In this document: positions 47,625 to 62,846 of the stretch, one piece after another | Layout of the letters: each line of letters opens with the position of its first letter | Position numbering within the stretch: position 1 is the first letter of the stretch | NCBI GenBank assembly: GCA_963789955.1 | Contig: CAWBMV010000037.1 | Coordinates: 288,001-352,000 of the forward strand | Source: an uncultured Candidatus Rokubacteria bacterium | GTDB taxonomy: Bacteria; Methylomirabilota; Methylomirabilia; Rokubacteriales; CSP1-6 | Length of the DNA: 64,000 nucleotides | Direction of reading: 5' to 3' | The notes under the pieces: generated by a model | Told to the model about the DNA's origin: nothing | The model's database searches: none | Seen by the model: the letters and a program-made list of their open reading frames with translations, nothing else | Position numbers and translations under genes: made by a program

Positions 47625-49184
47625 TCATTTCGCGGCTCCCGGAGTCATTTCGACGATCGGCTGGGCGATGATCCAGAGACTGACCATCGTGTACCCCACC
47701 ATCAAGGTCAACATCGCGAACTGGCTCCGGAGCACGGCACGACGATCACCAAACTCGCGCACGGCAATGACGTGGGCGACGTAGACGGCGATCACGTGAC
47801 CCGTGACGATGGCGACGACGGCTGTGTACCATGCGAAGCGAGCGCCGACGATCCCGATATCCGGACGGTACCTCGCCGTACCAAACAGATTCCAGCCAAA
47901 CCCGAAAGGATCGGACACCAGTGGAATCAGGAACTGTCCCTGGATCAGCAGGTACGTGAAGTAATGCGCCAGGTGATAGGCGATCGCGATCGGGATGAGC
48001 GAGACCACGAACGCGCGCTCGACGGCGGCGATCGGCCGCATGTTCCCGGCGGACAACGCCATCCATCTGGCGAACAGCCGATAGATCAGCACGAAGAGCA
48101 CCGGGAAGCTGAGGAGCGCGAGGGTGTCGATGACCGACACGCGGGCGTCGCCGAGAGGCGCCAGCGCAGTGAAGGCGATGCCTTCGAACGTGGCCCACGC
48201 CGGAGTTCCCATGAATCCGTCGAATGTCACGGTCGAGAGCATGAGCAGGACGAAGACGGCCATCGAACCCGAGATCGGCTCCGATCGCAGGAGTCCCGCT
48301 CCGAACGGCCGCAGATTCAGCTCGCGCTCGGCGTCCCCGGCGCGCGCGAAACACGCGCCACAGTTGACACAGCCGTCTTCCTGGTTCGCACACCCGTGCG
48401 CGCAACGGTGACACAGGTCGCGATTCGTCACGCGGATCTCGGTGGGAGCGAATCGCGCGAGGAGCCCGAACGCCATGGCAAACGGGTCGCCGTGTCGGAG
48501 CCACGCGACGCGCCCAAAGACCGCCATGCCGGCGAACGTCATCGCCGAGTACACCACCGTCATCAGCGCGAGCTGAGCCGGGACCGCCCGACCGAGGAAG
48601 ACGAGCTCGGTCCACGCGAACGCGAGGAACAGCGTGATCGCGGGCCACACGCCGAGCCATTGCGGATAGCGCATGATCGATGCGCCTTCGCCGTCGGATC
48701 CGCCACGGCCCTTCACCCAGTGAAAGACCGCACTCCAGGGATTCACGACAGCCCACAGATTGCCGACCAACGCCGAGATATAAGCGACGCCGACCCACCA
48801 CGCGACCCAGATGGCGGTCGGTGCGAGATTCCGCAGCGGATTTTGGTTGCCGACGGCGCCGGCAGCCACGATGAGCATCAGGGCACCGACGGATAGCACC
48901 TGAGCCGCGAGCTGGATGCCGCGGCTGACCAGCAGGCGCACGAGCCGCCATCGAAGCACGTTGATCCGCGGATAACCGCGCGTCACATTCGCGCCCTGCA
49001 CGATGGGGGCGATGATCGCGAAGGAGAGGGCGACTGCCGCGCCGGCGCCCGTCAGCCACAGCCAGAGCGGCACCGGAAGATCGTAGCGTTGGCCGAAGCC
49101 GTGGGCGAAGGCGGGCGTCGTGACGACCGGGATCGAGAGGATCGCGATCGCGGCGGCGCGTGCTCTGCAAACGGTAGCGCCCAG
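47625..49184 (-). CDS. Multi-pass membrane protein (HGFGxRYDLP family) with Cys-rich loop, paralogue A; start uncertain
   Basis: AFAHGFGQRYDLPVP, TVTFDGF, IAYHLAHY, SDPFGFGWNLFG, GHVIAVYVAH; CHRCAHGC...CVNCGAC. Confidence 0.78.
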   Translation of the reverse strand: MGATVCRARAAAIAILSIPVVTTPAFAHGFGQRYDLPVPLWLWLTGAGAAVALSFAIIAPIVQGANVTRGYPRINVLRWRLVRLLVSRGIQLAAQVLSVGALMLIVAAGAVGNQNPLRNLAPTAIWVAWWVGVAYISALVGNLWAVVNPWSAVFHWVKGRGGSDGEGASIMRYPQWLGVWPAITLFLAFAWTELVFLGRAVPAQLALMTVVYSAMTFAGMAVFGRVAWLRHGDPFAMAFGLLARFAPTEIRVTNRDLCHRCAHGCANQEDGCVNCGACFARAGDAERELNLRPFGAGLLRSEPISGSMAVFVLLMLSTVTFDGFMGTPAWATFEGIAFTALAPLGDARVSVIDTLALLSFPVLFVLIYRLFARWMALSAGNMRPIAAVERAFVVSLIPIAIAYHLAHYFTYLLIQGQFLIPLVSDPFGFGWNLFGTARYRPDIGIVGARFAWYTAVVAIVTGHVIAVYVAHVIAVREFGDRRAVLRSQFAMLTLMVGYTMVSLWIIAQPIVEMTPGAAK

Positions 49185-49305: not shown

Positions 49306-49805
49306 ATGCATCGCCGAGCGATTCTGCCGTGTCTCGCGGCCACCTCGGTCAGCGTCGCCCCCGCCGTCGCCTCGGCACACACCAGGCTCTCCGGAACCGT
49401 GCAGATCGAGACGTCCGGCGCGACATTGTCGGCGTGGTTGACGAGCTGGATGCGCGGGCGAAGCGTCCCGGCTGGCCATCCTCGCCGCCGGATGTGCGCT
49501 CGCTGCCATCCTGGCGATCTGGGCCCGGCGCGTCCGGCGCATACCGGTCGTCGCGCTGGCGTTGATGCTGGCCCTGACCGGGTTCGAGACCGCCATTCAC
49601 TCGGTGCATCATCTGGGCGATCCCCGGGCGGCCGAGCAATGCCTCGTCGCATCGAGTGGCGCACACACGCACGCCATCGGTGGCGGATCACCGTTGGTCC
49701 CTGGACGACGTCACGAGAGTCCTTGGAACCGTCTCGATAGCGTCCTGGCCATTACGTCGCTCGACGGTCGCTGCTCCGACCCCCGGCCGCGCTCCCCCCG
49801 CCTAG
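49306..49805 (+). CDS. HxVHHL/RAPP leader membrane protein, copy 1 (two frameshifts)
   Basis: MHRRAILP...VASAH; then FETAIHSVHHLGD...CLVASSGAH; then PGRAPPA* (49782-49805) in successive frames. Confidence 0.65.
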
Positions 49806-49901
49806 CTCCACGCGCATCGCACTTCGAGTCGCAGCGAGCAGCAGGCGAGCGCCTGCTCCGATGTCCCCTTGATCGTGCGCCGGCGGGCGCGAGGATCCGT
49901 C

Positions 49902-50265
49902 ATGCAAGCTATGCTCAGGTGGTCCGGGCTCCTCTGGCTCCTCGCGATGATGAGCGTGGTCGTGGTGCAGGCTTCCATGGCCGAGCCGAAGGCCATCGAC
50001 CTGGTCATCCGCGGGAGAAGCCTCTCGCCCGAGCAACGCGTGATCCGGGTCCAGCAAGGCGATGCGGTCACCTTGCGCTGGACGAGTGACCAGACGCTCA
50101 CCCTGCACCTGCACGGCTACGACGTCGAGCGACGCGTCGCTCCCGGCGCGGCCGCGACGATGAGCTTCACAGCGCATGCGACGGGCCGATTTCCCATCGA
50201 AGTCCATGCGAGCGAAGGACGGCGGCGAGACGACCCTGGGCTACCTGGAGGTTCACCCGCGGTGA
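49902..50265 (+). CDS. Cupredoxin-like periplasmic protein (late frameshift)
   Basis: Signal peptide, IRVQQGDAVTLRWTSD, LHLHGYD, GRFPIEVH, LEVHPR*. Confidence 0.72.
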
Positions 50266-51793
50266 GAGCCATTCGCCGTGACACCGTCGCGTCGTCGCCG
50301 TTCTCGCGGTCGCGCCGCCGGCGTGCGCGCACGGGTTTGGGGATCGTTACGACCTGCCGGTGCCGCTCTCGCTATGGGTCGCCGGGGCGGTGATCGCGGT
50401 GGTGCTCTCGTTCGTCGTCGTCGGGTTGGTCGTGCGAGCGCCCACGATTCCCGGGGACTACGCCCGGGTCAATCTGCTGCGCTGGCCGCCCGCGCGGATC
50501 CTCGTCGATCCGCGTCTGTGGCTGGTCGGGCGGATCGCGTCGATCGCGCTGCTGCTCCTGATCGTGGCTGCCGGCGTTCTCGGCAACCAGAACCCGACAC
50601 GAAATTTGGCTCCGACGGCCGTGTGGGTCGTCTGGTGGGTCGGCGTCGCCTATCTCTCGGCGCTCCTCGGCAACGTATGGCTCGTCGTGAATCCGTGGAG
50701 TGCGGCGTTCGCTGCCGTCGAGCGCTTCGTGGGGGGTAACCTCGCGTGGCGTTTCCCCTATCCGCGCGCGCTCGGAGCTTGGCCGGCGGTCCTGCTCTTC
50801 GGCGCGTTTGCGTGGACCGAGCTCGTATTCAATGGAAGGGCGGTCCCGGCCCAGCTTGCGCTGCTGATCCTCGGCTATTCGCTCGTCACCTGGGCGGGAA
50901 TGGCGGTCTTCGGCCGTGCGACGTGGTTACGCCACGGCGATCCCTTTGCGACCGTCTTCGGACTGCTCGCTCGATTCGCGCCGCTCGAGCTGCGTGTGAG
51001 CAATCCGCGCTGGTGCCACCGCTGTGAGGGAGACTGCGACGGCCCGGCGGATGGATGCGTCAACTGCCTCGAGTGCTTCGAACGGGCGCCCGAGGGCGAA
51101 CGGGAGCTGAATCTCCGTCCGTGGGCGGCCGGGCTGCTCGACGCCCGTGACGTCTCGCCGTCGATGGTCGTCTTCGCCCTCCTCCTCCTGGCCACCGTGA
51201 CCTTCGACGGGTTCATGGCGACTCCGCCCTGGTCCACGGTCGAGAGCACCCTCTACCCCTTGATGCCCGGCGACCCGGATCTCAAGCTCACGCTCACCTC
51301 CACCGTCGGTCTGCTGGCCTTCGCCGTCCTGTTCGTCGCAGCGTATCGCGTCGTCGCCGCCGGGGTGGCTGTCGCCGCCGGACGGCACGCCTCATCGCGC
51401 ATCGCCGGCGCGTTCGTCCTGTCGCTGGTGCCGATCGCGCTGGCCTACCACCTGGCGCACTACTTCACGTACCTGCTGATCCAGGGCCAGCTCACCATCC
51501 CGCTCGCGTCCGACCCGTTCGGCTTCGGCTGGAACCTCTTCGGCACGGCCGCGTTCGTCCCCGACTTCGGCCTCGTGGATGCGCGAGTGGCCTGGTACAC
51601 ATCGGTCGTGGCGATCGTGATCGGCCACATCGTGGCCGTCTACGTCGCCCACGTGGTCGCGCTCCAGGAGTTTCGCGAGCGCCGCGCCGTCGTCAGGAGC
51701 CAGCTCGTGATGCTGCTGCTCATGGTTGGATATACGACGGCGAGCCTGTGGATCATCGCGCAGCCCATCGTCGAGTTCAGCGGCACGAGCTAG
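50262..51793 (+). CDS. Multi-pass membrane protein (HGFGxRYDLP family), paralogue B
   Basis: ACAHGFGDRYDLPVP; colinear with paralogue A; CHRCEGDC...CVNCLEC. Early frameshift near 50290. Confidence 0.8.
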
Positions 51794-52353
51794 GGGGCCA
51801 GGGGCTTCGTGCCGGCAGCTCGCCGCCGGCGACCCCAGACCGCGAGCCACACAGCAAGGAGGAGGATCGCCAGCGCGCCAATCGCTACGAGCACGGCCCA
51901 ACGGACAGCCAAGGGCGGCTCGACATCCATCTCGAAATCGACGTCACCGCGCCCCGCCGATCCCTCGACCGACACCGTGACGTGCCAGCGCCCTTGCGCC
52001 GGAATTTTTACCCTCGCGTGGTACAAGCGCGGCACGAGCAGATCGAAGAATCCGCCGGCTGCGCGCGAGCCCACGCCCTCGACGAAGCCTGACGTGGTGG
52101 CGGCACGCGCCGTCAGGCGCATCCGGGCGTCGTCGACGGGCCGGCGCGTGTCGGCGCGGAGGATCGAGGCGCTGATATCGAGCGCGCCCACCCGCGCGGG
52201 ATCCGGCGCGGTCCACACCGAGACGACATAGGGCCCGGCCGGGACGAGCTCGCAGCGAAGCCGGCCTCCGTGCGCGTCCGCGTGCCCCGCCGGGAGCAGT
52301 AGCACGGCAACGATCGATCCGACCCGCAGCGCCGCCGCCCACCCAGCAGTCAT
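51790..52353 (-). CDS. YtkA/FixH-like Ig-fold protein with C-terminal membrane anchor
   Basis: Signal ADA-HGG, PDPARVG, YHARVKIPAQGRWHVTVSVEG, C-terminal TM plus RRRR. Confidence 0.6.
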   Translation of the reverse strand: MTAGWAAALRVGSIVAVLLLPAGHADAHGGRLRCELVPAGPYVVSVWTAPDPARVGALDISASILRADTRRPVDDARMRLTARAATTSGFVEGVGSRAAGGFFDLLVPRLYHARVKIPAQGRWHVTVSVEGSAGRGDVDFEMDVEPPLAVRWAVLVAIGALAILLLAVWLAVWGRRRRAAGTKPLAP

Positions 52354-52406
52354 CGACTCGCCTGGTCCTCGCCGCCCGAGCCGCCCCATGTTAGTGTGGC
52401 GCCGTC

Positions 52407-53978
52407 GTGTTGGCCTTCGCTCTGTTGTGGCTGCGCGCCGCGGGGCTCGTCGGGCAGGCGCTGGCGCTCGGCAGTACGGCATTCGCGCTCGTCGTGCTTC
52501 AGAGGACACGCGAGCCGGGCTCGCTCCGGCGCTTTCACTCTGCATTGGTGATCGCGGCGGCCGGCGCCTTGCTCTGCGCCGCGGCGCAAGCCATCGTTCT
52601 CGCGACCATCGCGAACGCGTTCGCCGACGAGCACGGCTGGGCGTTCGGCGCGCTGCTGGGCTCGACGGTGGGCCAGCGCGGAATGTTGCGCATTGTGGTC
52701 GCACTCGGTGTCGCCGGAGCCGCGCTGGCGACTCGTCGGGTCTCGAGCCCACGGATCTGGTCGATGCTGCTCGTCGCCGCCAACGCCTTGCTCGCCCTTT
52801 CGAGCGCACGGGTCAGCCACGCGGCGGGCCGTCAGGATTTCGGCTGGCTCGTCGCCGTCGGCGCTCTCCATCAAGCCGCCGCCGGCGTCTGGGTCGGCGG
52901 CCTGGTCTGCGCGTTCGTGTTCACCGTGCGACATGATGCGCAGGCTCCGATCGCCTGGCTCCGCCCGTTCTCGCGGCTCGCCGCGACGGCCGCCGGAGCG
53001 ATCGCGCTCACCGGCATCGCGCTCGCGTGCGGGTACGTCGCCACCCCGCGAGCCGCCATCGGCACCACCTACGGCGCGATGGTCGTCACGAAGAGCACGC
53101 TGTTCGTCGCGCTGCTCGTGATGGGCGCGCTGAACCATTTCGCCCTGCGCCGCCCGCCGGCGGCGGCACCCGGCGATACCATCGTCCTTCGCCGGCGCAT
53201 CGAGGTCGAAGCCGGGCTCGGCCTCGTGACGCTCCTCGTGGCGGCCTCCATCGCTTCGGCTCCGCCCGGCGTGGACGCGGGCGTCGCGCGCGCCACGCCC
53301 GAAGAAGTCGGCTATCTCTTCACGCCCCGCTGGCCGCGGCTCGACACGCCAACTCCGGCGGAGCTGCTGGCGACCTCCGGCCTCGGTGACCCGAGCGCGC
53401 CGCGCACCCAGGAAGAAATCGCGTGGTCCGAGTTCGGTCACAACGTCTCGGGCCTGTTCATCGTGGCGATGGGCCTGCTCGCGACGCTCGAGCGGACCGG
53501 CCGCGCGCCGTGGGCTCGCCACTGGCCGCTGCTCCTCCTGGGGCTGGCGGGCTTCATCGGCTGGAGCCTCGATCCGGAGGGCTGGCAGACGGGCGTCGTC
53601 GGTTTCTGGGACCAGATGCGCAGTCCAGAGGTCTTGCAGCACCGGATCTTGCTGCTGCTCACCGCGCTCTTCGCCCTCGCCGAGTGGCAAGTCCGCAGCG
53701 GTCGGCGCCCGAACTCCCCTTTCCGCTATCCGTTTCCGTTCGTGGCGATCGCGAGTGGCGTGCTCCTCATCTCGCACAGCCACGAGGTGAGCAACGCCAA
53801 ATCCGGGCTGCTCATGGAGCTCTCGCATCTTCCCCTGGGTCTGGTCAGTCTCCTCGCCGGCTGGTCGCGCTGGCTCGAATTGCGGTTGCCTCCCGCCGAC
53901 AGCGGCGGGCCCGGCCGCCTCTGGGGTCCCGCCTTCTGTCTCTTCGGGCTGATCCTCACCTTTTATCGCGAGGCGTGA
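52407..53978 (+). CDS. copD: CopD-family copper uptake membrane protein with extended C-terminal membrane domain
   Basis: VSHAAG, LHQAAAGVWVGGL, FSRLA, TTYG...K, LNHF. Extra domain WSEFGHN...QH...HSH...SH. Confidence 0.8.
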   Translation: MLAFALLWLRAAGLVGQALALGSTAFALVVLQRTREPGSLRRFHSALVIAAAGALLCAAAQAIVLATIANAFADEHGWAFGALLGSTVGQRGMLRIVVALGVAGAALATRRVSSPRIWSMLLVAANALLALSSARVSHAAGRQDFGWLVAVGALHQAAAGVWVGGLVCAFVFTVRHDAQAPIAWLRPFSRLAATAAGAIALTGIALACGYVATPRAAIGTTYGAMVVTKSTLFVALLVMGALNHFALRRPPAAAPGDTIVLRRRIEVEAGLGLVTLLVAASIASAPPGVDAGVARATPEEVGYLFTPRWPRLDTPTPAELLATSGLGDPSAPRTQEEIAWSEFGHNVSGLFIVAMGLLATLERTGRAPWARHWPLLLLGLAGFIGWSLDPEGWQTGVVGFWDQMRSPEVLQHRILLLLTALFALAEWQVRSGRRPNSPFRYPFPFVAIASGVLLISHSHEVSNAKSGLLMELSHLPLGLVSLLAGWSRWLELRLPPADSGGPGRLWGPAFCLFGLILTFYREA

Positions 53979-53989
53979 CCGGGCGCCGG

Positions 53990-54604
53990 CTACTTCATGT
54001 CGTGTCCTTTCATGTCCATCGGCTTGTCGCCGGTCGGCTTGTCGCCGCCAGCGTGATGGCTCATCTCGCCTTTCAGCGATTTGAGGTAGGCGACCAGATC
54101 GACGAGCTGGCGGACGGTCATCACGTCCCCGTAGTCGGGCATCTTCGATAGCCGATCGGAGCCCGTGTAGCCGGCGCCCTGCACGATGACCCGGTTCGGG
54201 TTCACGATCGATTCCGCGAAGTATTCAGCCGGATGATGGGAGCCCATGCCGGTCAATGCCGGGCCCGGCTCTTGAGCCCGCTTCGATGCCTTCGGGAAAT
54301 CCTCCCCTTTGACTTCGTGACACGCGAAGCACTCCAGTGTCACGAACGCCTCGCGCCCCTTGGCCGGATCACCCGGTGGCACCAGGAATTTCCAGCCCTT
54401 CGGCACCCCGCCCGACGCATGCAGCGCTTCCATCGTCGTGCGGATCGGCGCCGGCGGCTTCATGGCTGAAGTCTTGTCCCCGCCCATCTGCATGGTCCCT
54501 TGACCCCAGGCCCCTGCGGTGACGACCAGGCCGATCAGCAGCGCTAACACCGTCGTGCGTCGCGGTTCGATTCTCATGCCCATCCTCCGTAGGATGTCGT
54601 TCAT
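53990..54604 (-). CDS. Monoheme c-type cytochrome with His/Met-rich tail
   Basis: GDPAKGREAF, CFACH, ESIVNP, SKMPDY, tail MSHH...MDMKGHDMK. Confidence 0.85.
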   Translation of the reverse strand: MNDILRRMGMRIEPRRTTVLALLIGLVVTAGAWGQGTMQMGGDKTSAMKPPAPIRTTMEALHASGGVPKGWKFLVPPGDPAKGREAFVTLECFACHEVKGEDFPKASKRAQEPGPALTGMGSHHPAEYFAESIVNPNRVIVQGAGYTGSDRLSKMPDYGDVMTVRQLVDLVAYLKSLKGEMSHHAGGDKPTGDKPMDMKGHDMK

Positions 54605-54626
54605 CGTTGCCTCCGGGTTTGAGGAC

Positions 54627-54999
54627 TCATCGCGGGACCTGGATGACCGTGAACTGCAGCACGCCGTCGGTGATGTGGCCGTCGACCGACAAGGCCTTCC
54701 ACTCTGCCCGATACTGGCCGGCCGCGCAGTGAATAGACCAGCGTGTCCGCGGCGGTCGCGTCGGGGTTCATCAGAAGGACCCGGGCGTTTCGCGGCCCAC
54801 CGACGAGCAGCACCGACGACAGGCGAGCCTCGATGCGGCTGTTGAACTTGAGCACGAGCTGCGGGGGCGCCGGCAGTGACGCGTCGGCCTTTGGGACCGA
54901 ATCGACAAGCAGTGCATGCGCGGACAGCAGCGAGACGGGACCTAGTGCCAGCAAGGGCGCGATCAGAATCCCTCGCGCGACGGCCATCAACGGCTTCAT
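54627..54999 (-). CDS. copC: Copper resistance protein CopC (frameshift near 54725)
   Basis: Signal then HALLVDSVP, LKFNSRIE, YRAEWKALSVDGHITDGVLQFTV. Confidence 0.88.
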
Positions 55000-55140
55000 G
55001 CGCAGGACCGAGTCCGCGAGAGCTGAAACGGCCGACAGAGCACGAACCCCTCCCTCTGTTCACGCGAAGAAAATGGTGCTTCGGTGTTGCCGTACGCCGC
55101 TCAAGTGCGCGGACGGCGACCGCTGCGAGCTGCTGAGACG

Positions 55141-55710
55141 TCAGGGAACGATCGAGGGAGGAGCGCGTCCCCGCTGGGGACCGAGCGGGCGTGTGTCGGG
55201 CTGGAGCGGATCGACGACCGCGACGCAAGACTCGGTGGCGCCGAGACTTGCAGGGTCCGTATGAGGCGGATCAGCCGTGCCGCTGACGTGCGACGCGACC
55301 GAGGCAACGACGCAGCGCGCCGCGCCCTCGGCGTCACCGAGATGATGAACGGCGTGTACCGCCGTCTCGAAGGCGGCAATCGTGAGCAGCACCGCGAACG
55401 CCATCGCGCCGAGCCGGAGTCGCCGTCGCGGCAGAAGGTTCAGAACGGCAACCGCGAGGCACACCCCGAGGACCGACGTCGCCGCCGGCAGCGCATCGAG
55501 AGGGGCGACGTCCGACGCGCGGACCTCGTAGACGCTCGCGCCAGTCTCCTCGACTGGAGAGATGGGCGCCGGAACAGGGGAACGCGTCGCTACGGCGGGG
55601 GCGAGCGAATCCGGATGGGCCGATGCCGGCACCACGGTGCCAGCGAGCAGCAGCGCGACCGCTGCGATGAGCGTCGCCATCGGCCTGAGCAGGGGCCGTC
55701 GCATCGTCAT
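55141..55710 (-). CDS. HxVHHL/RAPP leader membrane protein, copy 2 (intact)
   Basis: PASA-HP signal, two TMs, FETAVHAVHHLGD...CVVASVASH, GRAPPSIVP*. Confidence 0.78.
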   Translation of the reverse strand: MTMRRPLLRPMATLIAAVALLLAGTVVPASAHPDSLAPAVATRSPVPAPISPVEETGASVYEVRASDVAPLDALPAATSVLGVCLAVAVLNLLPRRRLRLGAMAFAVLLTIAAFETAVHAVHHLGDAEGAARCVVASVASHVSGTADPPHTDPASLGATESCVAVVDPLQPDTRPLGPQRGRAPPSIVP

Positions 55711-55762
55711 CACGGGCACTGTATCACGGCATCGAAACCTGACCGCCCGCGCGGACCCGACA

Positions 55763-58018
55763 TCACTCGAGCCGCGGGGTGAAGCCCTTGACCGAGGCGT
55801 ACTGGTCCGGCCACGGCAGGTCCCATCCCTGCTCGTACGCGGCGTGCCGCGTCCAGTAGGGATCGTACAGATGACCGCGGGCGAGCACGCAGAGATCCGC
55901 GCGGCCCGCGGCCAGGATGCTGTTCACGTCGTCGTAGGAGGCGATGCCGCCGACGGTCATCGTCGGGATCTCGGCGTCGCAGCGGATGCGGTCGCTGAAC
56001 GGCGTCTGATAGAGCCGGCCGTACTCCGGCTTCTGGTCGGGCACGGTCTGCCCGGTCGACACGGTGACGATGTCGCAGCCGTGCTCGCGGAGCGCGCGCG
56101 CGAAGCCCACCGCTTCGTCGAAGTCGAGCCCACCTTCGGCCCAGTCCGTCGCCGAGATCTTCACCGACATCGGCCGGGCCGATGGCCACACACCGCGAAC
56201 CGCGTCGAACACCTCGAGCGGATAGCGCGCGCGATTCGCCGCCGAGCCCCCGTAGTCGTCGGTCCTCACGTTCGTCAGCGGAGAGATGAAGCTCGCCAGC
56301 AGATACCCGTGGGCCATGTGGAGCTCGAGCATGTCGAAGCCCGCCTGCTCCGCCATGCGGGCGGCACTGACGAACTGCTCGCGCACGCGGCTCATGTCCT
56401 CGCGGTCCATCGCCTTCGGCACCTGGCTGTGGGGATGATACGGGATCGCGGAGGCCGAGATCAGCGGCCAGTTGCCCTCGGCCAGCGGCTCGTCCGCCCC
56501 TTCCCAGAGGCGCCGCGTCGACCCCTTGCGGCCCGCGTGGGCGAGCTGGAGCGCGATCCGCGCCGGGCTCGCCGCGTGAACGAAGTCGACGATGCGCTTC
56601 CAGGCCGCCACGTGCTCGGCTTTGTACATGCCGGTGCAGCCGCGCGTGATCCGGCCATCGCGGCTGACGTCGGTCATCTCCGCGATCACCAGCGCTGCGC
56701 CGCCGACCGCGCGCGAGCCCAGGTTCACGAGATGCCAGTCGCCAGGTGTCCCGTCGTCGGCCGAGTACTGGCACATCGGCGAGACCACGATGCGATTCGT
56801 GAGCAGCATGTCGCGCAAGCGAAACGGCGTGAACATCGGGGGCGGCGGCGGCGAGACGGAAACGGCAACCTGGCTTTGATCCTCGGCTCGCGAGACGAAC
56901 CATCGATCGACCGCGCTGACGAAGCGCGGGTCGCGAAGCTTCAAGTTGTCGTGGGTCACGCGGAAGCTCCGCGTCAGGAGGCTCATCGCGAACTGGAGCG
57001 GCTCGAGGCGGCCGTGGTAGCGCTCGGCCGTCTCGAACCACTCGAGGCTCACCTGCGCGGCGCGCTGGAGACGCTCGACCTCCGGCCGCCGGTCCTCCTC
57101 GTACGCCGCGAGCGCCTTCTCGACCTCGCCGTGGCTCTGAAGCGCCTGCGCGAGCGCGATCGCGTCCTCGAGCGCGAGCTTCGTGCCCGAGCCGATCGAG
57201 AAGTGCGCGGTGTGCGCCGCGTCCCCCACCAGCACGACGTTCCCGTGGCGCCAGCACGCGTTGCGGACCGTCGGGAAGCTGCGCCAGAGGGAGCGGTTCT
57301 TCAGGAGCCGGTGCCCCTGGAGCTCCTGGGCGAAGAGGCGCTCGCAGAAGGCCAGGGTCTGGTCCTCGTCGGCCCGGTCGAGACCGGCGCGGCGCCAGGT
57401 GTCCTCGGTCGTCTCGAGGATGAACGTCGACATCGACGCGTCGTACCGATAGGCGTGCACGCGCCAGAGACCGTGGGGGCTCTCCTTGAACAGAAACGTG
57501 AACGCCGGATACGGAAACGTCGTGCCGAGCCAGACGAACTTGTTGGGTCGCCAGTCGATCTGCGGCCTGAAATGCTCGGCATAGCGGCCGCGGACGACGC
57601 TGTTCACGCCGTCGGCGCCGAGCACGAGGTCGGCGTCGGCGTAGTCACTCGGGTCGCCGACATCACGCTGGAACTCGAGCCTCACGCCGAGCTCGGCGCA
57701 GCGCCGCTGGAGGATGTCGAGCAGGACCTGGCGCGACATCCCGGCGAAGCCGTGGCCGGTCGAGGTCAGCACCTGCCCGCGGTAGTGGATCTCGATGTCG
57801 TCCCAGTGGGCGAAGTGGCTCGTGATCTCGGCGTGGCTCTCGCGATCGGCCGCCGCCACGTGCTCGAGCGTCGCGTCGGAGAACACGACGCCGAATCCGA
57901 AGGTGTCGTCGGGCCGGTTCCGCTCGACGACGGTGACGTCGTGGGCGGGATCCGACTTCTTCATGAGCAGGCTGAAGTAGAGGCCTGCCGGGCCGCCCCC
58001 GATCGAGACGATCCTCAT
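55763..58018 (-). CDS. Bifunctional anthraniloyl-CoA monooxygenase/reductase (salicylyl-CoA 5-hydroxylase/oxidoreductase family)
   Basis: GGGPAGLY, DDTFGFGVVFSD, GDAAHTAHFSIGSGTKLA monooxygenase fused to an OYE domain (SPMCQYSA, HMAHGYL). Confidence 0.92.
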   Translation of the reverse strand: MRIVSIGGGPAGLYFSLLMKKSDPAHDVTVVERNRPDDTFGFGVVFSDATLEHVAAADRESHAEITSHFAHWDDIEIHYRGQVLTSTGHGFAGMSRQVLLDILQRRCAELGVRLEFQRDVGDPSDYADADLVLGADGVNSVVRGRYAEHFRPQIDWRPNKFVWLGTTFPYPAFTFLFKESPHGLWRVHAYRYDASMSTFILETTEDTWRRAGLDRADEDQTLAFCERLFAQELQGHRLLKNRSLWRSFPTVRNACWRHGNVVLVGDAAHTAHFSIGSGTKLALEDAIALAQALQSHGEVEKALAAYEEDRRPEVERLQRAAQVSLEWFETAERYHGRLEPLQFAMSLLTRSFRVTHDNLKLRDPRFVSAVDRWFVSRAEDQSQVAVSVSPPPPPMFTPFRLRDMLLTNRIVVSPMCQYSADDGTPGDWHLVNLGSRAVGGAALVIAEMTDVSRDGRITRGCTGMYKAEHVAAWKRIVDFVHAASPARIALQLAHAGRKGSTRRLWEGADEPLAEGNWPLISASAIPYHPHSQVPKAMDREDMSRVREQFVSAARMAEQAGFDMLELHMAHGYLLASFISPLTNVRTDDYGGSAANRARYPLEVFDAVRGVWPSARPMSVKISATDWAEGGLDFDEAVGFARALREHGCDIVTVSTGQTVPDQKPEYGRLYQTPFSDRIRCDAEIPTMTVGGIASYDDVNSILAAGRADLCVLARGHLYDPYWTRHAAYEQGWDLPWPDQYASVKGFTPRLE

Positions 58019-58048
58019 CGCCTCGATTCTAAGCCAGCACGCCGATGG

Positions 58049-59274
58049 CTACTTCGGAAGCTTGATCGTCTGCGTCACCGTCTTGAGAACGGGGAACTGC
58101 TCCTCGTGCCAGGCCACTACGAAATCGCCGCCCGGCGCCACGGCCACGTCGGGCGCGTAGGCCTTGATCGCCTGCGGACAGGGACTGGGGCGCGCTGAGC
58201 GTCCGGCCGCCGTCGGTCGAGTAGCGCAGCAGGACACGCCGCCGCACGGCGGTCGCCTCCTCCCACACGATCACGACGCGACCGGTCGGATCCGCGGCGA
58301 GCCGCACCTGGTCGGGGATGGAGCCGGTGCGAGCTATTGAGGCGCGACGGGCGACCAGAATTGAGGTCGTCGCCGGCGGCGGCAAACAGCATGCGCGGCT
58401 GCCCGTCCGCCGTCTCGGTGTACCAGGCGAGGTAGACGCGCCCGCGATCGTCCATGGCGACGCTGCCGCCGCGATGCGGGCAGGCGTTGATCTTCCAGCG
58501 ATCGGCGTGGACGAGTCCGGCCGGCGCGAACGATCGCCCGCCGTCGCGCGACAGGCCGACCACCATGTCGCGGATGCTTCCGGGGAACACCTTCCGCCAG
58601 GCCACGGCGACCGTCTCCCTCGGCCCCGCCGCGACGTCGATCCGGCAGCAGACGCACGTTTCGCCCTCGTCGAGCTTCAGCGCCCGCTCGACGCGCGATC
58701 CGCGCTCCGTGACGCGCGCCAGATACGTGCCGGCGGTGCTCGGGCCGTCGCGACTATCGATCCAGGACACGATCACGGTGCCGTCCGGCATCGCGCCGAG
58801 CCCCTCGAACGAGTGCGAGATCGGCCGGTCCTCGTTCACCCGCAGGGGCGCCGTCGAACGTCTCGCCCTCCGTCGAGCGAGCGCGAGAGACGAAGATCCG
58901 AGGCGAAGAGCGCGCCCTCGGGCAGTCGGCTTGCGCGACGACCACGACACGTAGACTTCGTCGTCCGGCCCCAGCGCCAGCCCGGGCGGCTGATGCAGCG
59001 AGTCGACGTCAGACGCCGTCGGGGTTGACGCGCACCGGCTTGGGCTCGCTCCCGGGCCGCGCGACGAACAGATTGTTGTCGTGGCCCTGCTGGGCGAACC
59101 AGGCGAGCACGATCTGGCCGTCCGCGCTGACCGCCAGGGCCGGAGCGGAGACGTGCGCCTCGTGGGCCTTCTCGAAGACCGTCAGCTCCTGGCGCGGACC
59201 GAGCGCCGGGCCGGCGGCCTCGGCGGGCATCGCGCCGAGGACGAGAGCGAGCGCCGCGACGAGGTGATCATCAT
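58049..59274 (-). CDS. Sialidase/BNR-repeat-like periplasmic protein (several frameshifts)
   Basis: Asp-box-like SRDGGRSF and STDGGRT, ETCVCC, CPHRGG. ATGA overlap with the receptor stop. Confidence 0.75.
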
Positions 59275-61394
59275 TTGAACCTCCAGCTCACGCCGCCGTA
59301 GAAGGCGCGCCCGTCTCCGGGCTCGAAGTAGCGCCCGTTGGCGTTGTCCACGACCACGGACGAGACGTAGTTCGTAGTTGGCGAGGTTGCGCGCCTCGAA
59401 GAAGACGCTCAGGTTGATGGGCGGCTTGAGATCGAATCCCATCCGGACGTTGCCCAGCGCATAGCTCGGCGTTTTCACGGTGTTCTCGCTGTTGACGAAG
59501 TAGCCGGCCGGCACCCACTCGACGCTCGGCGCGATCCAGAAGCCCGAAAAATGGTCGTAGCGCAGCTCGCCCCGGATGAAGTGCTGGGGCGCGCCCGGAA
59601 TATAGTTGTTGTTGAAGACCGGATCGTCGACGAAGACGAAGCGCGAATAGGTGTAGGCAACCCGCGTGGCCAGGGTATCGCCCATGTCGCCCAGGCCCAT
59701 GCTCTTGGCCGCGTCGCGGACCAGCACGGCGCTGGCGCCGAATTCCACACCCGAGTGCCGCGAGCGATCGATGTTGTTGAAGCGCGGGATCGTGAAGGGC
59801 GCGCCCGGGAACGGCTGGACATTGACGTTCGTGATCTCGTCCCACAGCTCGATGTCGTACAGGGCGACGTCCCAGGTCACGCGATCGGCGAACGTTCCAC
59901 GGGTGCCCACCTCGAACTGCCACGCCTTCTGCGCCTCGAGCTGGCTCAGGTCGCCGCCGATCTGGCCCGGCGCCGTCAGCTCGAGCATGAGCGGTGGCTC
60001 GTACGATTTGCTCGCGTTGCCGAACACCTGGATGGTCGGCGCGACCCTCCAGAGGAAGCCGAACTTCGGGGCGAACGAGAAGAAGTCCACCGAATCGGAC
60101 TGGTTGCCGTCACTCAGAAACCGATCGCGGACTTCACGGGTCGCGTACTGGGCACGGCCGCCGACGACGGCGGTGAAGGTCGGAACGATATCGAACTGGT
60201 CCTCGGCGTACGCGCCCACGTTCGTCGAGATGTTGAACTGATCCTTGGTCTTGGCCCCGCGATGCCCGCTCAGGTTCTGGAGGTTGCACATCGATCTGCC
60301 GGGTGGAGAAGTACTGCAGACCGGCGATGAACCGGTTCCCATGCGAGAACAGCGGCGCCGTCACCGCGTACCGGAGCTCGGTGCCCCAGTTGTACGTGGT
60401 CTGGTCGATGACGGCGAAGCTGAGGGGGTGGTCGAGATCCTGATAGTCCAGCTGAGTTTTCCATTCCAGGATCTGGGTCTGCGCCGAGCGGCGTCCGGAG
60501 CGTCAGGCCGCCGCGGCCGTAATCGTAGTTCCGCTCCTGCCGGAACTGAGCGACGGTCGGGTCTTGCTGCCGCGGATTGCTCAGGAACTCCTGCAAGGTC
60601 AAGGCACCGGGCAGCTCTTCCTCGCTGTGGGTGTACCCGAGATCGAGGCGGATCGTGGTGCCGCCCGGAAACAGGTATCCGAAGGTGGCGAAGGCGCGAC
60701 GGCGCACCTGCTCGCTGTGATCGCGATAGCCGTCGAGCTCGGTGTCGGCGAAGGCCGCGTAGATATCGAAGGGGCCGTAGACCTGGCCCGTCCCGATGTA
60801 GTTCTTCAAGAAGCCGAACGAGCCGGCCTCGCTCCGGATCGCGACCAGGCCCTCGTCGTATCCCGTCTTGCTGACCAGGTTGATCGCGCCGCCGAGCGTA
60901 TACCCGCCAAACTGGAGCGCGTTGGCGCCCTTGTAGATCTCGATGCGCTTGGTCGTCAGGAGCTCGAGGGACTCGAAATCGCTGAACCCATCGGCCTGGC
61001 CGTAGATGAAGCCGTCGATCAGGACGTTGATGCCGCGCAGGTGGAAGTTGTTGCGCAACCCGGAGCCCCGAATCGAGAGCTGGCTCTCGTCGGCGGCGCC
61101 GAAGCGCGGGCGGATCATGACACCCGGGACGAAGTCGAGCACGTCCCTGAGGTTCGCCCCGCGCGTCTGCTCGATCGCCTTCTGATCGACGATGGCGGTG
61201 CCGCCGGGAACGCGCGACAGCTCCTCGCGGGCTTCCTGATCGGTGCGCGTGCGGTCCGCGAGGCACCTCGGGGACTTTCAACCACGACCGGTTCGAGCCG
61301 GGGTGGCGACTGCTGAGCCGGTGGCGCCGTCGGTTGCTGCGCCAGGGCCGGAACGGCGAGGAGCAGGATGAGTATCGAGCACGACGATCCGCAT
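59271..61394 (-). CDS. TonB-dependent outer-membrane receptor (several frameshifts)
   Basis: LEPVVVE TonB-box-like segment, plug VPGV...LSIRGSG...IDG...IEIYKGANA...GGAINLVSK, FFEARNL, C-terminal SWRFK*. Confidence 0.9.
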
Positions 61395-61403
61395 GAATGG
61401 CTC

Positions 61404-62178
61404 CTATCGAAGCCGGAATTCCACGGGGAGTAGCACCCACACACCGACCGCTTCCGATCCGCGTCGGCCGGCTCGAAGCGCCAGCGCTTCACGGCCTCGG
61501 CGGCCGCGCTGTCGAGATCGGGATGTCCTGCGGACTCGTGAACGAGTACCTCGCTGACACGTCCGTCGGAGGCGACGTAGACGCGCAGGGTCGTCATGCC
61601 CTGAATCCCGAGGCGCCGCGCGCTGCTCGGGTACGACGGCCGCACCTGATAGCCGCCGCGCGGCAGCGCCGTGCTGGTGATCGCGTCGGAGGGACGCGCC
61701 GCCGCGCTCTGCTGCGGGGCGGAAGCGTCCGTCTTCGCGCTGCCGCGGCCTGGCTCGACCCGACTCGCGGAGGTCTCGTCTCACGCGCGGCCTCGAACGA
61801 CGTCGAGGACGCCGATCCACTGACCGGCTCGCGGGGCGGCGGTGACGGTTCAGCCGCTGGAGCCGGCGGGGCGGAATCCGAGTTTCGACCGTCTGCGGTT
61901 CCGCGATCGGCGCCGGCATCGGCGTCGCGATGGGCTTCGGCAAGGTCAACTCTTCGGGCTTGCCGGCGGCGGCGGCGCGCGGCGCCGGCGGGCCGGCCGC
62001 GGGCTCCTCGAGCGGCCGCGGCGCGTCGACCAGAGTCAGGTCGGCGATCAGGACCGCCGGCATCCTTGGGCGTGACGAGATCACGACCGAGCGCGATCGC
62101 GCCGCCCACGAGTGCGACGTGGAGCAGGCACGAGATGCCGAACGTCGTACAACGGTACAGCGGTATCGCCTTCGCCAT
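61404..62178 (-). CDS. tonB: Energy transducer TonB (frameshifted)
   Basis: TM with SCLLH (SxxxH), Pro-rich linker, PSYPSSARRLGIQG...DG...LDSAA...WRFEP...LPVEF. Confidence 0.88.
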
Positions 62179-62221
62179 GAGTTCGCGGAATCCGCCTCTC
62201 GAAAAATTGACGGTGGAGTCC

Positions 62222-62248
62222 AGCGGACCGGAAAGAGTCCGGGCCGCT
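62222..62248 (-). promoter_or_regulatory. GC hairpin between RAPP leader stop and tonB start
   Basis: AGCGG-C-CCGGA-CTCTT-TCCGG-T-CCGCT on the minus strand. Confidence 0.5.
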
Positions 62249-62266
62249 ACCAGCGGGAACGCGAGC

Positions 62267-62785
62267 CTAGGCGGAGATCGGCGGGGCGCGGCCCTGATGG
62301 GCCGAGAGGGACAGCGCGTCGACGGCCGGCTGATGCTGGACGACGAGACGCTCGTACGAGGGCAGAACGAGGTACTCGGGCGTCGTCGCGTCGACCGGCG
62401 TACCGGACAGATGAGCGGACGCGGCCGCGACGTGACACGTCAATCCCGAGCGCAGATCGTCGAGATGACGGAGATCGTTGAGATGATGAACCGAGTGCAC
62501 GCCGTTCTCGAAGGCGAACAGCGCGAGGATCAGCACGATCGCCAGCGCGAGCGCGCGCCGCGGACGCCGCCACGCGACGATCAGCGCCGCCGCGGCGGCG
62601 AGGATGGCCGGCCAGGGCACGGCAGGCGGCGTCGGCGCTGAGGACCAGGTTGCCGTCGACACGGCGACCGTCGGCGCCGGCGTCTGGGCGACGGCCTCGA
62701 ACGCGGGATGCGCCCACGCGGGTCCGCACCAGGACGCGCACGCGACCAATACGAGCGCGGTGATCAGGGTAAAACGGCGAGGCAT
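62267..62785 (-). CDS. HxVHHL/RAPP leader membrane protein, copy 3 (intact)
   Basis: PAWA-HP signal, two TMs, FENGVHSVHHLND...CHVAAASAH, GRAPPISA*. Confidence 0.8.
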   Translation of the reverse strand: MPRRFTLITALVLVACASWCGPAWAHPAFEAVAQTPAPTVAVSTATWSSAPTPPAVPWPAILAAAAALIVAWRRPRRALALAIVLILALFAFENGVHSVHHLNDLRHLDDLRSGLTCHVAAASAHLSGTPVDATTPEYLVLPSYERLVVQHQPAVDALSLSAHQGRAPPISA

Positions 62786-62846
62786 CGGCGACATCCTAGC
62801 ACGGAACCGCGTGGCACCCGCCGGAGCACGGATGGCCCGCAGATTA

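Follow-up and report, generated by a model that had tools for sequence, protein, structure and literature searches.

RAPP-ending, histidine-rich leader proteins ahead of TonB and copper genes in Candidatus Rokubacteria: a candidate family of nascent-chain metal sensors

The stretch of DNA analysed here, the window, is 64,000 nucleotides (nt) long and spans positions 288001-352000 of contig C37 (CAWBMV010000037.1) of an uncultured Candidatus Rokubacteria bacterium, whose assembly (GCA_963789955.1) comprises 6.77 Mb in 38 contigs at 69% G+C, with a completeness of 87% and a contamination of 5%. It contains three paralogous genes, leaders A, B and C, which code for exported membrane proteins with a histidine cluster, a following cysteine and a C-terminus in GRAPP plus a few residues, each gene heading a block of metal-related genes. 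Sequence comparisons make it fairly probable, in our judgement, that these leaders stall the ribosome at the C-terminal RAPP motif and that the stall is tuned by metal at a periplasmic His/Cys site. The source genome has five copies (window coordinates unless a contig is named; ORF, open reading frame):

49306 to 49805, plus strand: leader copy A, a three-frame reading with breaks near 49440-49471 and at about 49706
55141 to 55719, minus strand: leader copy B, an unbroken ORF of 192 amino acids, ending GRAPPSIVP before the stop
62267 to 62794, minus strand: leader copy C, an unbroken ORF of 175 amino acids, ending GRAPPISA before the stop
C1, about 561780-562315, strand not stated: leader copy D, ending GRAPPA before the stop
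C6, about 71260-71765, strand not stated: leader copy E, ending PRAPPFALA before the stop

Copies D and E emerged both from a profile search and from tblastn with B and C as queries against the full genome. A reading of the window made beforehand from the sequence alone had placed three paralogous ORFs at the positions of A, B and C and had proposed that one family was reused there. Pairwise BLASTP bears out the relationship, with E-values of 8e-11 for B and C, 2e-13 for B and A and 2e-10 for C and A, so that the likeness is not due to chance; the reuse also stands, with five copies in the genome instead of three. The three proteins have in common a hydrophobic N-terminus ending in AxA-H (judged by inspection), an Arg-rich loop separating two hydrophobic helices, and E-x3-H-x2-H-H followed by Cys-x2-Ala. 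These elements and the GRAPP ends are as first described, except that the trailing histidine counted into the shared motif (H144 of copy B) is common in the wider family and not invariant. Copy B, which has 179 amino acids if counted from the MATLIAA start used in its protein-collection entry, carries H122, H125, H126 and C136, and its RAPP at 185-188 is followed by four residues to the stop. In copy A, frame 1 holds the signal peptide from 49306, ending in VASA-H, frame 2 (about 49463-49700) carries FETAIHSVHHLGD and then the cysteine, and frame 0 provides the end GRAPPA with its stop at 49805; two hydrophobic helices are present here as well. Close orthologues of copy C occur in loci L013 and L015.

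An initial word-indexed search with B retrieved nine proteins, every one ending in RAPP plus three to five residues, and close B orthologues in the protein search were 72-93% identical to it. A profile built from 13 sequences and searched against 1.84 billion representatives matched 768 cluster representatives at E ≤ 1e-3, 570 of them at E ≤ 1e-10, almost entirely from metagenome-assembled genomes of Candidatus Methylomirabilota/Rokubacteria. The family is present in 72 of the 151 sampled genomes of the phylum, the window genome having the most matches, and in 53 of the 98 with a completeness of 90% or more and a contamination of 5% or less. No relative of B closer than 44% identity was obtained in a search of 100 genomes from the same family, and two scans of metagenome contigs, with the middle part of copy A and with B, confirmed no relative. 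Conservation was assessed in the best 150 of the 768 representatives, in the numbering of B. In 145 of them (140 RAPP, 5 RGPP), R[AG]PP falls among the 12 C-terminal residues, and RSPP takes its position in the other five; 1-11 residues follow R[AG]PP, most commonly three or four. H122, H125, H126, C136, R185, P187 and P188 are invariant, and R101, E118, V124, G184 and A186 are conserved to at least 90%. All 13 relatives from species-representative genomes likewise have RAPP at the C-terminus, as would be expected if the motif is a conserved feature of the family. The window copies stay below the cut-off of every Pfam and NCBIfam model. NCBIfam gave sub-threshold matches only, of the type expected of hydrophobic segments, and the weak DUF4131 matches of 119 of the 150 representatives (best E = 4e-4, under the cut-off) are likely of the same kind. 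A search of the ESM Atlas gave unnamed Methylomirabilota clusters, the nearest named one being DUF2946 at 0.81, which is a lead only. Listing every ORF of the genome with an R[AG]PP ending proved too noisy to be of use, with 256 stop-to-stop frames, mostly Arg/Ala/Pro-rich, in this GC-rich genome.

The architecture was counted in the 263 proteins having both the His and the RAPP motif. They start with an export signal; next come a transmembrane helix that terminates in H-x-x-H-H, a single invariant cysteine, a linker, and RAPP near the stop. The cysteine lies 5-15 residues past H-x-x-H-H (7-9 in 253 of the 263 proteins), and the residues intervening between this cysteine and the arginine of RAPP number 48 in 220 proteins, 47 in 33 and 49 in 10. 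The linker aligns nearly without gaps, and its sequence is unconserved. An AlphaFold2 model of B, which is half coil and of modest confidence (predicted local distance difference test score, pLDDT, 69.5; predicted template modelling score, pTM, 0.37), has helices at 11-26, 83-94, 101-125, 130-135 and 137-145 and coil at 146-192. An unconserved sequence, a predicted coil and a length fixed within one residue together fit a ruler and not a folded contact surface. By its sequence, the His-cluster helix is oriented from the cytoplasmic to the periplasmic side of the membrane. Long forms, with at least 70 residues ahead of the His cluster and an extra signal peptide and first helix, make up 228 of the 263 proteins; in 214 of these 228 a small-x-small-His pattern lies past the first hydrophobic stretch, which predicts a mature N-terminal histidine. 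Short forms (26 of 263) of about 100 residues possess just one anchor helix, preceded by an Arg-rich N-terminus, and examples come from small-genome families of the phylum.

The genes and spacers around the three window leaders are as follows:

47625 to 49160, minus strand: divergent paralogue of the Cys-rich membrane protein at 50282-51793, N-terminus reading AFA-HGFGQRYDLP
49806 to 49901, plus strand: intergenic region A, 96 nt up to the ATG at 49902
49902 to 50265, plus strand: cupredoxin-like gene, Pfam Cupredoxin_1 and Cu-oxidase_2 below their cut-offs, with a break near 50200
50282 to 51793, plus strand: Cys-rich multi-pass membrane protein of no family, predicted mature N-terminus HGFGDRYDLP after a short signal
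52407 to 53978, plus strand: CopD-family membrane protein (Pfam CopD, E = 7e-17), convergent with block B
53990 to 54655, minus strand: cytochrome c gene (Pfam Cytochrom_C, E = 4e-11)
54560 to 54999, minus strand: copC (Pfam CopC, E = 2.6e-4; 22.4 bits against a cut-off of 23.3)
54995 to 55140, minus strand: intergenic region B, 141 nt to the copC ATG at 54999
55763 to 58018, minus strand: flavoenzyme of 751 residues, unbroken, between the C and B blocks
58029 to 59230, minus strand: BNR-like protein, in pieces, the window copy without a Pfam match
59182 to 61142, minus strand: TonB-dependent receptor, in pieces (Pfam Plug and TonB_dep_Rec_b-barrel)
61115 to 62178, minus strand: tonB, split over three frames (Pfam TonB_C, E = 5e-18)
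62179 to 62275, minus strand: end of leader C and 88-nt spacer to the tonB ATG at 62178, consensus fold with L013 and L015

On the plus strand, leader A is followed by the cupredoxin-like gene and the Cys-rich membrane protein. The minus-strand string reads leader C, TonB, receptor, BNR-like protein, flavoenzyme, leader B, CopC and cytochrome c. The co-oriented metal blocks thus have the composition that the sequence-only reading had given them, and the measured spacers of 96 nt (A), 141 nt (B) and 88 nt (C) agree with the distances of about 90-140 nt that it had noted. The copC frame is broken near its C-terminus, the remaining CopC domain lying in another frame. The flavoenzyme matches the NCBIfam model 'bifunctional salicylyl-CoA 5-hydroxylase/oxidoreductase' with 1175.6 bits against a cut-off of 1078 and is also kept after the C-type operon in L013 and L015, and orthologues of the BNR-like protein in L008, L009 and L011 match Pfam BNR_2, at the cut-off in L008 and just under it in L009 and L011. 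The two Cys-rich paralogues flanking leader A have about 480-510 residues, a loop with C-H-R-C, C-V-N-C and C-F, and the predicted mature N-terminus H-G-F-G-x-R-Y-D-L-P; neither (50282-51793, 47625-49160) has a Pfam or NCBIfam match.

Elsewhere in the source genome, copy D is followed after 130 nt by a cytochrome c paralogue and copy E after 39 nt by an outer-membrane-like gene. Among the 13 species-representative loci, TonB and then a TonB-dependent receptor follow the leader in eight, often with a BNR-like gene next, and copper chaperone sets follow in two (Sco1, PCuAC, cytochrome c, CopC and CopD in L006; CopC and CopD in L012), the remaining three being cut by contig ends; the relation of the downstream genes to metals that had been read from the window is therefore found in the wider family too. 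Further loci have Sco1 with cytochrome c downstream, or BBP2-type porins (3 loci). A family of about 325 residues stands directly after the leader in six loci, the gene after copy E included (L002:6805-7792; L012:5369-6349; L020:1905-2360; L029:3272-4246; L032:4634-5614; L035:3534-4532). It matches no Pfam or NCBIfam model, has the predicted mature N-terminus H-G-L-x-G-x-R-F-F-P-A-T-L-A-x-D-D-P-F-V-A-D-E-L-S-L-P and may be an outer-membrane channel. In the loci examined the leader is always the first gene, with a long spacer next. Two genomes have tandem leaders in the order leader, TonB, second leader, receptor (L007:5178-7110, identical to L033; L010:4299-6128), and in L012 two leaders stand back to back on opposite strands. 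L009, in a record labelled Candidatus Nitrosocosmicus, has a leader, TonB, TonB-dependent receptor and BNR-like gene of the Rokubacteria type and is probably a misbinned bacterial contig in an archaeal metagenome-assembled genome. The source genome also codes for a different small membrane protein ending in DSRAPPLR, with H-V-H-V after the first helix (L002:3129-3410, minus strand, corresponding to about C6:68128-68409), which sits upstream of porin-like ORFs and ZnuA/ZnuC-like genes and looks like a second kind of RAPP leader.

The closest characterised build is that of CruR (Bp2923) of Bordetella pertussis, the prototype of DUF2946/PF11162, which is described as an exported protein of 145 residues with CXXC at 90-93 and RAPP at 139-142, so that 48 residues intervene between C90 and R139 and 45 between CXXC and RAPP; a five-residue extension of this spacing left the copper response strongly diminished (Roy et al. 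2022, PMC9426467). According to the same report, arrest without copper permits expression of the downstream TonB-dependent transporter, and copper relieves the arrest, upon which Rho terminates transcription. Translation of CruR with reconstituted components has confirmed its arrest, also by toeprint, the two Pro codons then occupying the ribosomal P and A sites (Fujiwara et al. 2025, PMC12992588). That work also reports that small exported or membrane proteins with RAPP or RGPP are encoded preferentially, in different phyla, ahead of genes for TonB-dependent receptors, YcnI, PCuAC and PepSY, that RAPP is strongly avoided in proteomes and acted as an arrest motif in every case tested, and that seven Streptomyces RAPP/RGPP proteins arrest, two of them with predicted His/Cys copper sites. 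As far as these reports describe CruR, it and the present family agree in gene order, the gene for a small exported protein coming first in the operon and that for a TonB-dependent transporter after a long spacer, and in protein build, where the ligand motif is succeeded by a linker of fixed length but unconserved sequence and by RAPP shortly ahead of the stop. In both, 48 residues separate the first cysteine from the arginine, which places the family cysteine at the first-Cys position of CXXC, with the second cysteine replaced; that position is Ala in the window copies and closer relatives. The differences are that CruR has CXXC whereas this family has C-x-x-A plus an upstream H-x-x-H-H, that the His cluster here lies at the end of a transmembrane helix, and that most members carry an extra signal peptide, first helix and predicted N-terminal histidine. 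Moreover, TonB itself would be the first regulated gene in this family, and CruR belongs to Proteobacteria, the family to Methylomirabilota.

The export signal, the C-terminal RAPP, the fixed spacing and the position as first gene before copper or TonB genes with a long spacer are all features of DUF2946 proteins that recur here; CXXC does not, its place being taken by the single invariant cysteine. Membership of the window copies in DUF2946 was examined and rejected, the PF11162 gathering score of 23.7 bits not being reached and no match appearing at the five copies in the source genome. A clean match was the outcome that would have removed any novelty, and what is shared instead is the architecture with its 48-residue ruler. 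At E ≤ 10, PF11162 matches seven of the 150 full-length members and ten of 35 cores (second helix to end); on the cores it is the commonest weak match, and the last positions of the model always align to RAPP. The cut-off is passed once, by the short form of L018 with 27.1 bits, and L020 scores 20.3. A second leader family was seen in Methylomirabilales (L019:1480-1836, plus strand; P0267-P0285), with a helix, A-Y-H-Y-H-P-D-G-G, C-L-L-H-F-W, 47 residues and R[AG]PP; it reaches 22.5 bits on PF11162 against the cut-off of 23.7. On the negative side, the window copies do not reach the model. PF11162 gives 8.6 bits (E = 4.2) on the core of B, full-length B and C have no match at E ≤ 0.01, and B has none at E ≤ 10; an hhalign comparison with the second leader family, as a stand-in for DUF2946, gives a probability of 2%. 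Among the matches listed in the word-indexed searches (120 of 173 in one), no protein bears a stored PF11162 label. With a stand-in comparison at 2%, the likeness to CruR is to be read as a common build, and homology to CruR/DUF2946 as no more than plausible.

CutF of Rhodobacter capsulatus is reported to stall upon copper binding, the stall melting a stem-loop that hides the cutO ribosome-binding site, and the metal sites of DUF2946 are described there as 'mostly Cys- and His-residues' (10.1101/2025.02.05.636593, citing Ozturk et al. 2023). As described in these reports and in Ozturk et al. (2021, PMC8456105; 2023, PMC9973294), CutF resembles the proposed system in that an exported protein senses periplasmic copper while still being translated, the ribosome halts at a C-terminal proline motif and an RNA structure hides the next ribosome-binding site, a counterpart of which is predicted here in 16 of 32 loci. 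It differs in its CXXXC motif, its EF-P-sensitive PPP and its control of a multicopper oxidase; moreover, the masking strand predicted here consists of the RAPP codons and tail themselves, unlike that described for CutF. SLIV_16130 and SLIV_18480 of Streptomyces lividans, together with the 'TonB-related' and 'Cu-related' classes of upstream ORFs, also comprise signal-peptide or membrane proteins with RAPP/RGPP near the C-terminus upstream of metal genes; the conserved His/Cys of the two proteins are predicted to bind copper, and arrest by the Streptomyces proteins was shown in vitro (PMC12992588). These are different sequence families from the present one. HSVHHL, HAVHHL and HSAHHL were not found in the examined part of its upstream-ORF list, which may still include the family, nor was the name of the phylum found in the searched part of its supplements. 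ApdA/ApdP and SecM share the RAPP (or RAGP) core near the C-terminus of an exported protein and a stall that controls the next gene, but they are described as monitoring the secretion machinery and preceding sec genes, whereas metal genes and a conserved ligand cluster are found here (PMC7897499, PMC10951233). The present family is likely a histidine-type, often two-helix variant of the CruR/CutF nascent-chain sensors.

Hence, we hypothesize that, once the P site holds the first of the two RAPP Pro codons, the linker would fill the exit tunnel and the translocon, so that at the stall the cysteine and the His cluster would just have emerged in the periplasm. There a metal, most likely copper, would bind the His/Cys site, possibly with the predicted N-terminal histidine of the long forms, and binding would change the pulling force on the chain and hence the length of the stall. 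Copper is suggested as the metal by the neighbouring genes and by CruR. The stalled ribosome would also cover the C-rich RAPP codons and tail, which would otherwise be paired with the next ribosome-binding region; since this footprint is predicted to pair with that region in about half of the loci, the stall would switch the next gene on, following the logic of CutF and SecM. Protection from Rho termination, the logic of CruR, may act instead or in addition. The effect of the metal on the stall may differ between importer operons (TonB and receptor) and handling operons (CopC/CopD/Sco1). We put forward a bolder version as tentative, with the odds somewhat against it: one 12-nt string would have two jobs, the RAPP peptide jamming the ribosome and the GCU-CCU-CCC RNA hiding the ribosome-binding site, while the duration of the jam would be set by a histidine-brace-like site (mature N-terminal His, H-x-x-H-H and Cys) kept at a distance of exactly 48 residues from where arrest occurs, and up to five such switches per genome, sometimes two per operon, would form a phylum-wide post-transcriptional copper regulon that also controls TonB.

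The predicted pairing comes from folding the RNA of 32 loci, each segment beginning 75 nt ahead of the Arg codon of RAPP and ending shortly beyond the start of the next gene. Pairing probabilities were summed between the footprint, which runs from the Arg codon until 15 nt after the codon in the P site, and a 12-nt stretch covering -16 to -5 relative to the start. At least three expected pairs were obtained in 16 of the 32 loci, compared with two and one for equal windows 24 and 48 nt upstream; copies C and E have 5.9 and 6.0. In the C type, the last codons, stop and 7 nt at 62261-62275 are predicted to form a 12-base-pair helix with the purine-rich 62191-62202 in a consensus fold of the window copy with its two orthologues from L013 and L015; the helix shows one-sided changes only, and a small hairpin between its strands has compensatory changes. 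For B, the predicted pairing partner of the RAPP codons is a purine-rich element at 55046-55056, past which a GTG at 55042 opens a mini-ORF of 15 codons whose TGA overlaps the copC ATG at 54999; this mini-ORF (54995-55056) may couple the translation of leader B and copC. Compared with the other codons of the same leader genes, the first Pro of RAPP is CCT in 15 of 36 cases (19 of 245 background Pro codons, p = 8e-7), Ala is GCT in 13 of 36 (43 of 476 Ala codons, p = 3e-5), Arg is CGC in 30 of 36 (70 of 183 Arg codons, p = 7e-7) and the second Pro is CCC in 23 of 36 (91 of 245 Pro codons), these p-values overstating the significance since the loci are mutually related. By its letters, the RAPP codon string resembles the anti-Shine-Dalgarno core. 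As the downstream starts were moreover chosen partly by Shine-Dalgarno score, the pairing and codon numbers are to be taken as indicative.

A number of observations count against the proposed mechanism, and most of them concern the RNA. Among them are the relatedness of the loci and the choice of starts; footprint pairing is weak or absent in 16 of the 32 loci, and in six the next 23 nt downstream of the footprint pair instead. The expected pairs for the footprint are only 1.2 for A, 0.3 for D and 0.0 for B with the ATG at 54999, and the B segment folds no better than its shuffles (z = -1.2), which makes the B pairing a lead only. In the C type, the purine-rich element lies 13-24 nt before the tonB ATG, beyond the usual Shine-Dalgarno distance. 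The codon bias could reflect decoding speed and not RNA pairing, and the RAPP codons, being rich in C, would in any case be prone to pairing with G-rich sites. Concerning the metal, the unbroken receptor orthologue L015:6177-8333 matches no specific NCBIfam receptor type above cut-off. The members of the leader family come, furthermore, from uncultured organisms.

The same arrest sensor might instead have a transcriptional output, the stalled ribosome shielding the spacer RNA from Rho with little contribution of masking. CruR, the closest characterised relative in build, is reported to act in this way (PMC9426467), and the leader-to-next-gene spacers are long, with a median of 91 nt and up to 236 nt (18 of 32 at 79-101 nt), and slightly richer in C than in G (0.36 vs 0.31); no intrinsic terminator was found in those of the window, nor is footprint pairing predicted in half of the loci. 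The C excess is, however, no larger than in the leader coding sequences, so that this test did not discriminate, the spacer of copy E has merely 39 nt, and the RAPP codon bias and the conserved C-type helix are explained by masking instead. With C barely above G, no more so than in the leader, and no terminators, Rho control stays a live alternative, which we rate as unlikely without setting it aside. A quite different explanation, that the proteins are stable, membrane-anchored periplasmic metal-binding proteins acting as chaperone or sensor partner, with RAPP as a contact motif, would account for the long forms, whose cleavable signal, periplasmic stretch of about 50 residues and two helices exceed the needs of a leader; the cluster of His, Cys and Glu could be a permanent copper site, and the five paralogues adjoin copper proteins. 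We consider this very improbable, given that the stretch from Cys to RAPP is unconserved, predicted to be coil and fixed in length within one residue, that the gene always stands first with a long spacer next, and that RAPP, as reported, is avoided in proteomes and arrests wherever tested (PMC12992588).

It has also to be asked whether copies A, D and E are decaying pseudogenes, B and C alone being functional, since three of the five copies need frame changes. Broken genes are many across the source assembly, which is 87% complete in 38 contigs, with further cases in loci L001 and L002. Between 49900 and 62200 they include the cupredoxin-like gene near 50200, CopC, TonB (three frames), the receptor and the BNR-like gene, and several long window genes are unbroken despite these frequent breaks in otherwise conserved genes, which suggests local consensus errors in the assembly. 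Relatives of the leaders in other assemblies are unbroken in 13 of 13 cases. For copy A, the public contigs of related strains that could be aligned are few, short and of low depth, and a search that covered public DNA runs found no sequencing run containing half of the sampled words from the locus. Two environmental contigs are nevertheless consistent with an open frame at both breaks. One, of 151 nt, has five extra letters at 49455-49471, which brings frames 1 and 2 into register; the other stops at 49705 with a loose end equal to 49707-49717, from which we infer that it does not have the C at 49706, and the absence of this C brings frames 2 and 0 into register. Read across the second break, copy A has the Cys-to-Arg spacing of 48 of the family. 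The breaks in copy A are most likely consensus errors or very recent changes, and decay of A, D and E seems to us unlikely.

The proposal of metal-tuned arrest at RAPP is an extension and not a new principle, since the class, its logic and His-containing sites are already in print. The novelty is accordingly smaller than the sequence-only reading had hoped, small exported RAPP/RGPP proteins ahead of TonB-related and copper genes having already been surveyed in several phyla (PMC12992588). In the literature and the examined parts of supplements, we did not find the ligand set of His cluster and single Cys where a helix ends, long forms having two helices and a predicted N-terminal histidine, TonB as first target, tandem leaders per operon, the identity of the ruler with that of CruR, or the anti-Shine-Dalgarno-like RAPP codons.

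Nascent-chain metal sensing is a young field, and its prototypes CruR and CutF answer copper in opposite ways. The present family would add a large natural series, with hundreds of clusters and up to five copies per genome, in which different ligands, rich in His and with one Cys, are set on the same 48-residue ruler in one- and two-helix forms and the targets would include TonB itself. It would thereby provide a comparison set for the origin of the ruler, for ligand chemistry versus response polarity and for arrest codons as an RNA mask. For Methylomirabilota, a function as translocation-coupled metal sensors may thus be proposed for a gene family that neither Pfam nor NCBIfam covers.

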